NCBI GenBank assembly: GCA_964016885.1
Contig: OZ024741.1
Location: forward strand, 276,644,001 to 276,708,000
Source of the DNA: Eledone cirrhosa
Lineage: Eukaryota
Reading direction: 5' to 3'
Length of the DNA: 64,000 nt
Position numbers and translations under genes: made by a program. Shown in pieces: positions 2,831 to 56,985 of this stretch. The notes under the pieces were generated by a model. The model had not been told where the DNA came from, ran no database searches, and worked only from the letters and a program-made list of their open reading frames with translations. The stretch's first letter is position 1. The number at the start of each line of letters is the position of its first letter.

Positions 2831-3650
2831 AAAATCACCGGGAGAGATGACCCCTTAGCCTTTGTCAAGGCAGAATTCTAGGAGAAGGAAAACTCTGATA
2901 TAACACCTGCAACTCTGATGGTATACAATGATGTTGACTTGTTCTTCTTTTTGGTAAATATCATCTTGGTTAAGAGAGTGGAATTGGCTTTGTGCAGTGC
3001 CTTTGCTCACTATAAAAGCTTCACGACACAGGCATTGCTTTATATCTGGAGATCTCTCTGCACTTGTCGTCGCATGGTGCCATGGGCTCAGCACTATGTG
3101 TCAGTAATTGTCACAAGTATAGTGTTTGTACCAGAGTTTTCAAGTCGCTGGCTGGACTAAAAAGTCACACTCATTCAGCGCATCGGTAGGAGTTCTCCTA
3201 CATGGATATAAAGTAGTGGCCGTACTCGAAAACGCGTTGGCAGCCATCATATATATATACATTTGCTTGAACAGATGACTAACAGCTACCATTTGCATTC
3301 CTGCAGACTTTCTTAAGTTAATGAAACTATTGGCTGCAGATACAAATTATCATAAACATATATATACGCGTGTGTGTGTGTGTGTGTGTGTGTGTGTGTG
3401 TGTGTGTGCGTGTGCGTGTGTGTGTGTGTGTGCGTGTGTGTGTGCGTGTGCGTGTGCGTGTGTGTGTGTGCGCGCGTGTGTGTATGCATGTATATATAAA
3501 GAATTGGATTATTAGAGGAAATGCTCACTTAACTCATCTATATCAAGATATGGAATAATCATCAACAATCATACGAGTCGAGATACACCAACGTGGTGAA
3601 ACATTGTGTAGGGTCAGGATAATTGAAGATAAAAGTACTACAGAGCATAA

Positions 3651-3775
3651 TATAACAGAGAAACATTAGTCAAAGATATATATCAAATAAACAACATTCA
3701 TTTTCTGCATGTTTCGAAACACACGTAAAGAATAAATGTTAATTTTATCTTTGACCAATTTTTTCGAATGTTATA
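3651..3775. mobile_element. Decayed PLE-derived palindrome centred on GTTTCGAAAC (3' half of a hammerhead)
   Basis: Imperfect arms (gtcaaagata.../...tatctttgac); GAAAC-acac-GTA; aagtact motif at 3633-3639; ends in (TA)n. Confidence 0.5.
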
Positions 3776-3875
3776 TATATATATATATATATATATATAT
3801 ATATATATATATATATATATATATATATATATATATATATATATATATATATATATATATATATATATATATATA

Positions 3876-4078
3876 GGTACGTTATTCCGGTTTGAGTCGG
3901 AGGTAACCACAGTAAGTAAGGTACTCAATACATTGCAGAGTATAAAAGTGTTAATATAGATGAGATTCTACAGGACTGTTTCTTTCTTTAGAAATCATCA
4001 GGAATCTCTGATGATTTCCTGATGATTTCTAAAGAGTGAAACAGTTCTAGTCCTGTAGAATCTCATCTATATTAAAAC
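3876..4078. mobile_element. Short PLE-derived palindromic insertion with hammerhead-like cores on both strands
   Basis: Inverted repeat 3951-4075; CTGATGA 4019-4025, GAAAC 4038-4042, GTC 4050-4052; GGTACTC at 3920-3926; (TA)n on both sides; the same end recurs at ~56065-56120. Confidence 0.7.
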
Positions 4079-4331
4079 TATATATATACATATATATATA
4101 TATATATATATATATATATATATATATATATATATATATATATATATATACATATACATACATACATACATATATACATACACACACACATATATATATA
4201 TATATATATATATATATATATATATGTATATATATGTGTGTGTGTGTGTATGTGTGTGTGTGTGTGTGTGTGTGTGTGTGTGTGTGTGCACTGTCGCTTG
4301 TGTGTGTGTATATATATATATATATAATGAC

Positions 4332-4430
4332 ATAATTGTTTCTACTTTAGGCACAAGGCCAGCAATTAACCAGTGCATTACTGGTACTTTATTTTATCGA
4401 CCCCGTAAGGATGAAAGGCAAAGTTAACCT
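4332..4430 (-). mobile_element. SINE fragment with Meta/MESC-like core
   Basis: Reverse complement of GCCTTTCATCCTTACGGGGTCGATAAAATAAAGTACCAG; matches four other copies in the window. Confidence 0.85.
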
Positions 4431-4649
4431 CTATATATAATGACATAATGTTGAAAATACCTGTTTCAGAATACGTAATGATAATAAACATAGACTGAAT
4501 GTGTAGAATCGCATAGATATCACAAGATTTTAAACAGGAAAACTGTCAGACTATCATACTCAACTGCAACGAACTTAGAATGTTACATAGCAGGACTAAA
4601 TAATAAGCACCTCTGAAAACACAACAGTAATCGAACCTAAATTCGAAGT

Positions 4650-5590
4650 AATAACCCATCTTCGTGTTAATTTTTATCTCAGCCCACTGTACCATACCAA
4701 ACCAACAATAGCAAGTGGGCATTCCTATCACAGCCCTTCAATGCACCTACCCTAAATGACAGAACAAAAACGGATTTTAATTGACAAGCTCTATTACATT
4801 GTAACTGTAGAAAACCCGATAGTTGCGCCTTATCAGTTAATGCATGAGTAACAACATTGCGTACCAGTGCAAAGTTACAACAAGCCATGGGATATTTAGA
4901 TATGTGGGGTCTATATCCAACTTTTTAAAGAAAAGATGGTATGTAATACCCTTTCGTTTAAAAATTCAGAGCTTCTAAAATCTACCGCTTTGGCTAGAAA
5001 AATATGGGAATTTTGAAAAATGTAAAACATAGAATATAATCTGTCGTGGTCCGTTCTATGATTCGCCGACCCATACCAACGTGAAAGAAATGAATGTGAT
5101 TTTTGTGCGATGAAAGTACTAGAAATCTTGGCAGGAAAGAAATGACTGAATTCTAGACAAGATAGGATATTCAACTGTAAGCACAACTACCTTAAAGCAT
5201 TTTCTAATTATAACTCTAGTTAACCCATGATTAGAACCTATTACCCTACCTCCATTTTTGATCTAAATTTCTCTATTTCTGTTTCTTTCAAATAGTCTGC
5301 TTTTATCACATAAGCAAGTGACGCTAATTCCTCTATTATAGCTACATCCTTATCTGTAACTGTCATGCTGGTACTATTAAAATTAAAGAAATTTGCAGTC
5401 TTTTAATTTTTTACCACAGTAGCTACTCCCATCACTTATACGATCTCCTTTGATCTATAAATTAACTATCTCTCAACCAATAACATATATAATGTATGTA
5501 GTACCAAAAATTGCTGGAAGCCCATAGGTCAACTTATCAATTCTTCCTCTTATTCGATACTAGTATCACTTGAAATTCTAAATATTGTAT
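4650..5590 (-). pseudogene. Possible highly decayed L1/Tx1-type ORF2 remnant
   Basis: Broken minus-strand frames give RGRID (APE-like), IEELASL...EKFRSK (linker-like) and CCN...VTHAL (C-terminal Cys/His-like); many stops. Confidence 0.25.
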
Positions 5591-5869
5591 TTATTCTCTG
5601 AAGATTGGTTGAGTAACAATGTATTGCAAGGGAGTGATTGGAAAAATGAATACCCTTAAACAGCTCTCGTAGACCCTGTGACGTAACATGATGATGAAAC
5701 ACATGCTAGAATGTATAATTAAATAAGTTTTTCTAATCACGCCTTGTCTGTTTTTCCTAACACACACACACACACACACACACACACACACACATATATA
5801 TATATATATATATATATATATATATATATATATATATATATATATATATATATGTGTGTGTGTATATGT

Positions 5870-54546: not shown

Positions 54547-55344
54547 ATTTTTAATTTAAGGAACTTGTTCTTTGTTTTTATTTCATTGTTTTTATTAATT
54601 TATATATATATATTATATATATATATATATATATATATATATATATATATATATATAAATCTAAGTATGTATATGTACATACATATATGTATACAGACGT
54701 ACCGTAGTATGTATATACATACATACATATATATGTACGTATGGGTTTACCGAACATCTATTATAATGTTCGGTTTGTTTGTAAGCAAACAGCCCGAATT
54801 AAGCCGTACAGTGTTCGTCAACCATCGTTGTCCTTTTGTTCAACACTGACAAAGGAACGATGAACTACTTTCTAGCTTATTGGCTGTCATCAGCACCGTA
54901 TACCTTCCTGTCAGTCTATTGAACGTTTGAAAGTATATACTTTCCTTATGCATATTAACGGCTGAGCAACCTAATTTGCATATCGAGTGAGTTAGTCGGC
55001 CGGGCGTACCGAAAACGGTAAATGGGAAAAATGAAATTTCATTTCTCACTCTTAGTACGGCTGATACTTAAATGTAAGTATGTATACGTACGTACATATA
55101 TGTATACAGACGTACAATAGTATGTATATACATACATACACACACACACACATATATATATATATATATATATATATATATATATATATATATATATATA
55201 TGTACGTATGGGTTTACCGAACATTTATTATAATGTTCGGTTTGTTTGTAAACAAACAGCCCGAATTAAGCCGTATATATGTATGTATGTATATATATAA
55301 TGTTGACGAGAAAACAAGGGCGTGGTGGTGGTGGTGTTGGTGGT

Positions 55345-55460
55345 GTTTGTACACGTGTCTGTAGAATGCTCACCCACTTACACATTAATTTCATGAGCTG
55401 GCGATTCCGTTCCTCAAACAACTGGAGCACTCATCGTTGAAACCGACGGAGTTCCGTTCC
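55345..55460 (+). mobile_element. Fragment of a second SINE-like repeat (resembles octopus SINE 3' tails)
   Basis: CCACTTACACATTAATTTCATGAGC..TTCCGTT..CAACTGGAGCACTCATCG..AACCGACGGAGT; recognised from memory only. Confidence 0.5.
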
Positions 55461-55503
55461 ATTCTTTTTCATTAAAAACTACTTGACCCGTGCCGTCAGT
55501 AAT

Positions 55504-55651
55504 TGTTTCTACTTTTGGCACAAGGCCAGCAATTATCCCAGTGCATTACTGGTACTTTGTTTTATCGACCCCGTAAGGATGAAAGGCAAAGTTAACCTCG
55601 GCGGGATTTGATCTCAGAACGTAAAAGGCCATAACTCTATGCTGTAAAGTA
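55504..55651 (-). mobile_element. SINE with a 13-bp target-site duplication
   Basis: Same core as the other copies; TGCCGTCAGTAAT at 55491-55503 and 55652-55664. Confidence 0.9.
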
Positions 55652-56141
55652 TGCCGTCAGTAATGATGACAACAGTGTGGAACATATTTCATTTATAAGC
55701 CCAGGATTGTTGTCAGATATATGCCAGGATTGCTGGATATATGAATAATTATACAAGCTGGGATATTTGCATTTTGATAAATTAATGATTTACATAAAAG
55801 AAACCCAATGGTTTATGTTTATTACTGACATGTTAAAAATGGTATTTTAATAACTTATTTCTAGAATACAATTACATAGATGTTTAGCATATATGTACAC
55901 ATGACATGCAGGATTAAATGTTTAGGTAATTTTGGAGAAATAGTTATTTACATGGACAAATATAGGGTTAGGACATAGTGATTGGAAAGTGAACTTCTTG
56001 TGGCAACATCACGGAGACAGGAAATGCAATGTGTATGTTTTTGTGTAAATTTTAAAGAGTTTCATATGATTTCCTTCGAATGAAACAGTTCTAGTCCTGT
56101 AGAAGCCATTTCTATATTAAGTTTTGCTATATATATATACA

Positions 56142-56770
56142 CGAGGTGTGTAAGAAAAGTTCCAGGACTGACGTCACAAAAGATTTATTTCAAACCCAAA
56201 CTTCACACTAAGAGTTTTCTCCTTCAAAGTAATCCCCTGGAGTATGTAACTGTAATCTTAGCTCTCTGCAGCGATCAAACTTTTTTCTTCATAATTTTAT
56301 ATACATGTCCTCTGTTTCAGGTCGTCAAGCAATGAGCACAGAGCAACGAACAAACTTGAAGTTTCTGGTACGGTTGGGGAAAAGTGTTTTTGAGTTGTAC
56401 AAGAGGTTTAAAGAAGGACGCGAGGACGTGGAAGATGACCCCAGGAGCGGAAGGCCCTCAACAACGTCTTGAAACCGAACCAGATTTGCTAGGAACAATC
56501 ATCACCGGTGATGAGTCACGGATCTTCGAGTACGACCCGGAGGGGACCCGTTTTGAAGACGTGGACGACATCAAAAAAGCCGTGACGACGGAACTGCGGA
56601 GGATCCCGGAAGAATCCTTCCAAAAGTGCATGCAAGCGTGGCAGAAAAGGATGGAAAAGTGCATTAGATTCCAGGGGGATTACTTTGAAGGAGAAAACTC
56701 TTAGTGTGAAGTTTAGGTTTGAAATAAATCTTTTGTGACATCAGTCCTGGAACTTTTCTGACACACTTCG
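56142..56770 (+). mobile_element. Internally deleted mariner element
   Basis: ~55-bp TIRs CGAGGTGTGTAAGAAAAGTTCCAGGACTGA.. / ..TCAGTCCTGGAACTTTTCTGACACACTTCG|TA; transposase remnants [46 protein letters not shown]. Confidence 0.93.
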
Positions 56771-56814
56771 TATATATATATATATATATGTGTGTGTGTG
56801 TGTGTGTGTGTGTG

Positions 56815-56985
56815 TTAGGTAATTCCGAAGGAAAAGCAAAGGAAAAAAGAGTGCTCTATGTATAGAACAGAGCTATTTAATTAGAAAGTGAACAACACAA
56901 AATATAACTACTCTATTATTGTCTGGGGTCCAGAAACCTTTGGTAATGGAGTAGTTATATTTTGTGGTCAATTTCTAATAAAATA
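56815..56985. mobile_element. Short PLE-derived palindrome with the 3' half of a hammerhead
   Basis: Inverted repeat ~56875-56983 (cacaaaatataactactctatta / taatggagtagttatattttgtg); GAAAC-ctttg-GTA; AGTGCTC at 56850-56856. Confidence 0.6.

Follow-up and report, generated by a model that had tools for sequence, protein, structure and literature searches.

Six insertions and their coding relatives

We analysed a 64,000-nucleotide (nt) stretch of the Eledone cirrhosa genome (contig OZ024741.1, positions 276,644,001 to 276,708,000; hereafter the window), in which six short insertions lie at (TA)n microsatellites. These are the 5'-truncated ends of six different families of Penelope-like elements (PLEs) of the Hydra clade, and forms of a hairpin that is a new cis-element of this known clade are found in them. 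As an initial annotation had proposed, the six share one layout: each has a tail on one side of an inverted repeat, and the end without a tail lies on (TA)n. The insertions, one non-inverted end and their hairpins are the following.

3495..3775, minus strand: element 1; inverted tail-less arm, 3'-half hammerhead and tail of about 150 nt; the family tail runs into a Hydra open reading frame (ORF) in locus L129
3582..3646, minus strand: hairpin of element 1, long-loop form, found by eye; 3' strand mutated in this copy
3876..4078, minus strand: element 2; tail 3876-3950, inverted repeat 3951-4075, whole hammerhead
3920..3941, minus strand: bulged hairpin of element 2
7411..7604, minus strand: element 3; longer family copies carry a Hydra endonuclease
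7445..7467, minus strand: hairpin of element 3, 1-nt bulge form
49467..49883, minus strand: element 4; tail 49467-49551, arms 49552-49879, whole hammerhead in each arm
49521..49548, minus strand: bulged hairpin of element 4
50511..50672, minus strand: element 5; 3'-half hammerhead
50556..50582, minus strand: bulged hairpin of element 5; this copy has lost one inner pair
56815..56985, minus strand: element 6; 3'-half hammerhead; the family leader precedes a Hydra ORF in tandem locus L051
56850..56873, minus strand: bulged hairpin of element 6, G-C covariant form
53149..53368, plus strand: non-inverted end; hammerhead 53171-53221, hairpin 53279-53308, tail to 53368

Two details of this layout had to be adjusted. 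An element does lie at 3651-3775, where element 1 had first been placed, and its true extent with the tail is that given above. The tail-less ends do stop in (TA)n, as had been claimed, while the tail ends of 7411-7604 and 56815-56985 meet (GA)n and (TG)n first. The genome is 3.0 Gb long and rich in (TA)n; 140 ten-kb stretches of it were sampled, with L031-L090 serving as the pattern-finding set and L133-L212 (800 kb) as the held-out test. Across the element ends recorded, 366 of 457 abut (TA)n. The element-5 family is the most numerous in the sample, and the element-3 family has at least 2474 first-look candidates. At 30 loci of the element-3 family, both outer ends are fixed and the centre differs from copy to copy, which implies that the inversion is made at each insertion.

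Each repeat was said to hold a whole or 3'-half hammerhead, and this was borne out by our own descriptor or by eye, the two ways in which these sequence-predicted ribozymes were called. The descriptor finds whole forms at 3876-4078, at 49467-49883 and ahead of the motif at 53302, which does follow a non-inverted hammerhead end as had been noticed. The hammerhead at 7411-7604 is whole by eye, with a stem I of only 3 bp in this copy. For the 3'-half forms of elements 1, 5 and 6, longer family copies give whole predicted hammerheads for 5 and 6; none was found in the longer copies of the element-1 or element-3 families. Among 13 reference copies, the descriptor predicts a hammerhead in 5, the rest being called by eye or degenerate, and Rfam scans returned no hammerhead, their matches being microsatellite-driven microRNA only. 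The minimal cores, including the U3-A8 variant, are shared with the PLE type I hammerheads described by Cervera and de la Pena (2014, PMC4209133).

Every one of the six families joins an ORF of its own elsewhere in the genome: element 1 in L129, element 2 in L236, L237, L243 and L245, element 3 in L062 and L057, element 4 in L047, element 5 in L082 and element 6 in L051. The Penelope-like origin suggested earlier is thus upheld; the description of the families as non-coding is not. For elements 3, 4 and 5 the link is an upstream endonuclease, and for elements 6 and 1 it is a tail running into the ORF start. For element 2, 39 of 79 pattern matches (hand count) continue into one leader and 4 of the 10 examined reach a long ORF; its 3' untranslated region was not seen in L226, L233 or L234 because other insertions interrupt them. 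Since tail copies run into an ORF start, the tail is the start of the next unit's leader and the end of the tail is an internal start site.

Three coding remnants lie in the window itself:

8333..10650, plus strand: broken Hydra-clade ORF with RWR, DKT and CxCX5C; nested long interspersed nuclear elements (LINEs) interrupt it after 10690
5971..6600, plus strand: Hydra-clade reverse transcriptase (RT) fragment; its identity to the ORF that follows the element-6 leader in L051 is 72-76%
1..2458, minus strand: broken Neptune-type element with a CX2-5CxxC linker; 3' end without hairpin

The broken Hydra ORF may run on to a tail-less end at 32014; between the two lie LINEs nested at (ATT)n (10690-29660) and, at 30580-31693, an element with terminal inverted repeats.

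Assignment to the Hydra clade rests on ORF motifs, linker and endonuclease domain, which are among the diagnostics given by Craig et al. (2021, PMC8557442): an RWK-like motif, DKT, a CxCX5C linker, absence of CCHH, CxxC and CxH, a hammerhead and (TA)n targets. All of these are common to the families described here, and one Octopus family is listed in that paper. RT followed by a C-terminal GIY-YIG endonuclease occurs within one ORF in L034, L063, L073 and at window 8333-10650. RWK or RWR is present in 6 of 6 N-terminal segments and DKT in L237 and L051; the CxCX5C linker is present in 7 of 9 endonuclease segments (one mutated, one too short), and CCHH, CxxC and CxH are absent. The domain order, RWK with DKT, the linker, the predicted hammerhead at the 3' end and insertion into (TA)n were all found. 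The endonuclease domains of the linked ORFs share 31-56% identity, and the Pfam GIY-YIG model gives weak matches in 4 of 8 segments (best E 0.0022).

The initial annotation instead held that many diverged non-coding families with a motif in common rely on one Neptune-type machinery, such as that at 1-2458. Most copies are indeed short and non-coding, one non-coding tandem of ~221-nt units belongs to the element-2 family, and a common hairpin would permit cross-mobilisation among Hydra families. However, all six families own a Hydra ORF, and the Neptune family of the window lacks the motif: its A-T form was found by script in none of 30 loci and its G-C form was not seen in the printed ends. 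The attached ORFs have CxCX5C, and the CX2-5CxxC linker was found only at 1-2458, whose element ends in a terminus of its own with a U3-A8 type hammerhead (by eye). A second Neptune-linked family likewise lacks GAGY. We regard dependence on Neptune as very improbable. That second family (L032:2262-3897) also forms units of an inverted copy plus a tail; the small stem-loop in its tail is a different one, and its link to Neptune crosses a (TA)n run; window 61300-61490 looks by eye like a relative of it.

Retrozymes without long terminal repeats (non-LTR retrozymes; bioRxiv 10.64898/2026.07.22.740005) were also considered and set aside. They are alike in the opposite-strand pairs and in a short non-coding tandem, and differ in that each of the six elements is the truncated end of an autonomous element, stands as a single inverted unit and has coding relatives. 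The tandem criterion fits L238 only (G000:C1:67879442-67882472), which holds four ~221-nt non-coding units of the element-2 family, each comprising hammerhead, hairpin, tail and ORF start; it is a retrozyme-like derivative.

A covarying hairpin in the tail

A scan of the held-out DNA for inverted repeats with tails, run blind to the motif, recovered GAGYRCY in 26 of 51 elements, compared with a mean of 0.69 and a maximum of 4 in shuffled tails; the first sample had given 19 of 50. The enrichment expected of a shared cis-element is present, and 23 of the 26 lie 12-35 nt outside the repeat, the range claimed at the outset. The counterpart in element 1 (at ~3582-3588) is mutated in this copy and lies outside that range. 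The motif also occurs on the opposite strand of 12 of the 51 elements because GAGTACTC is palindromic. In its strict form it is found in 10 of 33 tail clusters and is not universal.

The motif is one half of a structure, not a stand-alone signal. It forms the 3' side of a hairpin with covarying pairs, RCTC-stem-loop-stem-TN-GAGY(RCT), in which RCTC lies upstream of GAGY, with a variable stem and loop between them and a 2-nt 3' bulge that is mostly TT, TC or TA. Across 19 clusters the outer pair is A-T in 9, G-C in 4, G-T in 3 and mismatched in 3. A structured descriptor gave 45 matches in the held-out 800 kb and 2-15 in 20 shuffles (about 9 expected by chance), and 38 of the 45 have a microsatellite 25-90 nt downstream; a decoy with a 5' bulge gave 12, against 4-11 in shuffles. 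When hairpins were defined by sequence only (105 matches, 19 clusters), 36 of 57 inner pairs were Watson-Crick in the 2-nt-bulge register and 8-18 of 57 in six other registers; the permutation mean was 23 and none of 20000 permutations reached 36, although the clusters are related by descent and such p-values overstate their independence. The MAFFT alignment of hairpins is not structure-aware and was excluded from these pair counts. The hairpin core is present in 14 of the 33 tail clusters (0.07 in shuffles), in some with loops of 48-61 nt, and GAGT stands at the hairpin 3' strand in 8 of 11 printed relatives of element 1.

The same hairpin was found outside this genome. In a metagenome set of 80 loci with Hydra-type RT, 13 of the 54 regions that follow the endonuclease contain the core (0.68 in shuffles, 2 on the opposite strand), as do 13 of the 28 regions that precede the ORF (0.14 in shuffles, 0 on the opposite strand). 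Sequence-only strings were found on the element strand in 32 of 68 clusters and on the other strand in 17; in 55 such strings, the bulge register gives 104 Watson-Crick pairs out of 165 and the other registers give 27-43 (0 of 20000 permutations). By eye, the hairpin is also present in three of six new consensuses in File S7 of PMC8557442, from corals and sea cucumber (Hydra-2_Amil, Hydra-1_Ajap and Hydra-2_Ajap); Hydra-1_Crog nearly has it, and two lack it. Although some of its consensuses show one, no description of a tail hairpin was seen in the text of that paper, and the tails it gives measure 30-40 nt, compared with 55-150 nt here. Hairpin terms are absent from the supplement text of PMC11167929, whose figures may bear on novelty, and no report of the hairpin was found in the open-access literature, on which figures, Repbase notes, subscription papers and bioRxiv supplements may also bear.

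Tail asymmetry and candidate start sites

Next, we considered how the two arms are joined. Among 68 head-to-head pairs in 1.46 Mb, 66 combine a tail end with a tail-less end, two are tail-less on both sides and none has two tails. Of the 47 junctions that could be resolved, 20 have the longer arm on the tail-less side and 9 on the tail side, and in 18 the two arms lie within 5 nt of each other; for differences of at least 15 nt, the tail-less arm is longer in 14 and the tail arm in 4. This anchored count replaces an earlier one, in which 63 junctions were tried and 45 resolved (19/5/21) and short tail-less arms were under-represented. In eleven cases the tail arm ends no more than 20 nt from the hairpin; the other junctions are concentrated at the hammerhead core, immediately ahead of it or in stem II, and not at the cleavage site. 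In 17 pairs of the element-5 family, the arms diverge by 0.048 within an insertion and by 0.110 between insertions, and all 17 have the same subfamily letter in both arms.

These observations bear on fold-back self-priming, a route proposed for PLE palindromes (PMC3846280), in which cDNA (complementary DNA) started at the tail end would snap back and copy itself as far as the hairpin, acting as a stop or cut signal. It would yield one tail per pair, and the 18 near-symmetric junctions and shared subfamily letters agree with it. Nevertheless, the tail-less arm extends further 5' in 20 of 47, and the 11 tail arms that barely pass the hairpin could not have templated the other arm without later deletions, so that fold-back of the tail-side cDNA is insufficient without such deletions, whereas two primers on an uncleaved RNA suffice. 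In addition, the tail-less ends fall on TA microhomology, like priming sites. We consider fold-back an unlikely origin of these pairs.

Tail-less ends lie at a TA just ahead of the hairpin. Most families have alignments that end at -2 to -8; in the element-2 family the stops scatter as far as -16, and in TA-rich families the alignments continue into the (TA)n. In 18 of the 80 metagenome loci (13 groups), a second hairpin follows the first by 58-70 nt, before the start codon. Comparison of terminal with continuing copies places the tail end 4-7 nt before hairpin 2 in L281, L303 and L295 (metagenome) and in L073 (this genome). By eye, a second hairpin is also present in L051 (long-loop) and L129 (variant). 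The motif had been suggested to mark the priming or fold-back point; its spacing to the likely priming site is fixed, as the first suggestion would have it, while the fold point varies between copies near the hammerhead.

The hairpins lie 25-50 nt upstream of the start codon, a position that would also suit a translation or promoter element in the leader, with the starts set otherwise. Alternatively, the hairpin could act in DNA, as single-stranded cDNA or a cruciform, and be recognised or resolved by the endonuclease: the tail has been ascribed to endonuclease-mediated resolution (PMC8557442), and the Drosophila Penelope tail is needed for endonuclease recognition according to PMC11167929. 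Against both roles, G-U type pairs are tolerated, the signal is strand-specific and both classes of end lie at a fixed, short distance 5' of a hairpin. These roles seem to us improbable.

We propose that each insertion was probably produced by hairpin-positioned twin priming on one RNA, as the sequences of ends and junctions suggest. The leader hairpin, often present twice, would bind the element's RT as RNA, and the hairpins would set two start sites. The endonuclease would nick both strands of (TA)n; one 3' end would anneal to UA before hairpin 1 and the other before hairpin 2, with probably one protein subunit per hairpin. Both copies would extend toward the 5' end and often stall at the hammerhead, although the tail-side copy may also stall at site 1, and the two cDNA ends would then be joined head to head. 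The tail would be the stretch between the two start sites. Twin priming in L1 likewise uses two primers on one RNA to give an inversion, with the second priming not at a fixed site and without duplication. In hepatitis B virus, the bulged stem-loop epsilon recruits the RT, and synthesis is protein-primed inside the bulge.

Several observations weigh against this proposal. Nineteen of the 33 tail clusters lack the hairpin core, among them the Hydra-linked L179, and the hairpin is weak: by our reading, 3 of 9 window tails have it as their minimum-energy fold, and in single-sequence folding the tails are not unusually stable, element 4 excepted. Under our pairing rule 121 ends are unpaired. The 123 tail ends of the six families comprise 66 joined to an inverted arm, 16 joined directly to (TA)n without one, 39 of uncertain join and 2 at an edge. 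The spacing of the tail end to hairpin 2 rests on four cases, the element-2 family shows no clear second hairpin, and a search of 20 candidate regions revealed no tandem continuation of families 3, 4 and 5. Later palindrome deletions or gene conversion between arms could mimic the asymmetry and identity of the arms. Finally, either strand can use either start site in vitro (PMC11167929), which alone would not give zero tail/tail pairs.

The closest biochemical parallel is a Poseidon-clade PLE, PAc (Frangieh et al. 2024, PMC11167929), which nicks and extends both strands in vitro from two internal sites bounding the tail, with an uncleaved hammerhead in the template and a predicted dimer. It differs in belonging to another clade and in initiating in a stem-loop, rich in AC, that lies inside the ORF; no motif conserved across families is reported in the portion of that paper available to us. 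The canonical PLE unit, with a pseudo-LTR, an inverted 5'-truncated copy and a one-sided tail (PMC8557442, PMC3846280), has entirely the same layout; here exactly one tail was counted in 66 of 68 pairs and the ends are tied to a structure. The inverted-copy-plus-tail layout, the Hydra clade, the hammerheads and the two-start origin of the tail are already published. How PLEs recognise their own RNA, and what causes an inverted copy with a one-sided tail, are named as open questions in PMC8557442 and PMC11167929.

The dinucleotide tract between element end and (TA)n differs by family, as seen at element ends in the loci examined and at window 7381-7410 and 56789-56814. (CT)n stands at 15 of 75 ends in the element-3 family, where many loci were search-selected, and (CA)n at 5 of 9 tail ends in the element-6 family; such tracts occur at 0 of 88 ends in the element-5 family, and a background of 7182 gave 55 CT and 182 CA. 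Among the non-perfect-TA ends listed (hand count), (CA)n follows 41 of 100 element-4 tails and 2 of 100 element-5 tails. These family-specific tracts fit either stutter at RT initiation or family-specific target choice. A wider proposal, which we advance tentatively and hold to be nearly balanced with a slight lean towards doubt, is that a clade-wide tandem pair of bulged RNA hairpins serves as the docking site of a dimeric RT-endonuclease, with a subunit on each hairpin that primes one of the nicked (TA)n strands 2-8 nt ahead of that hairpin. This would fix both the PLE tail and the one-tail inverted unit, and an RT that stutters at initiation like its relative telomerase would seed (GA)n and (CA)n tracts beside (TA)n.

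Conserved across animal phyla and across families as diverged as these endonucleases, this 25-nt structure offers an exact mutational handle on these open questions of PLE biology, which also serves the study of RNA recognition by telomerase's closest relatives. It is in addition a marker for annotating Hydra elements, which are frequent in this genome.

Further features of the window

Other ends and hairpins of this kind were found on the plus strand:

36628..37542, plus strand: further tail/tail-less pair with 304-nt arms; degenerate hairpin 37439-37466
36510..36538, plus strand: further hairpin, G-C form, inside a tail ending at 36605
50817..50845, plus strand: further hairpin, G-C form, inside a tail ending at ~50910
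31901..32014, plus strand: tail-less end with hammerhead (31909-31958), of the same family as the end at 53302

At 53902-54600, a 318-nt inverted repeat that lacks a tail is flanked on each side by (TA)n. Window 61530-64000 holds a long, microsatellite-rich 3' untranslated region with a whole hammerhead, resembling the element-6 family tandem in L051, together with nested inverted arms (62097-63465). At 56142-56770, 96-nt terminal inverted repeats between (TA)n runs surround a transposase-like remnant, which we take to be mariner-like and which is inserted next to a tail-less end of the element-2 family (56066-56126). A further repeated family, whose short ends are palindromic and lie among (TA)n, occupies 48900-49250 and 54660-55280, and a related stretch comes after a Hydra endonuclease in L233. 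The tails of elements 2-6 carry splice-donor-like words, GGTAA/GGTGAG (GGTAAG), on the plus strand, antisense to the element.

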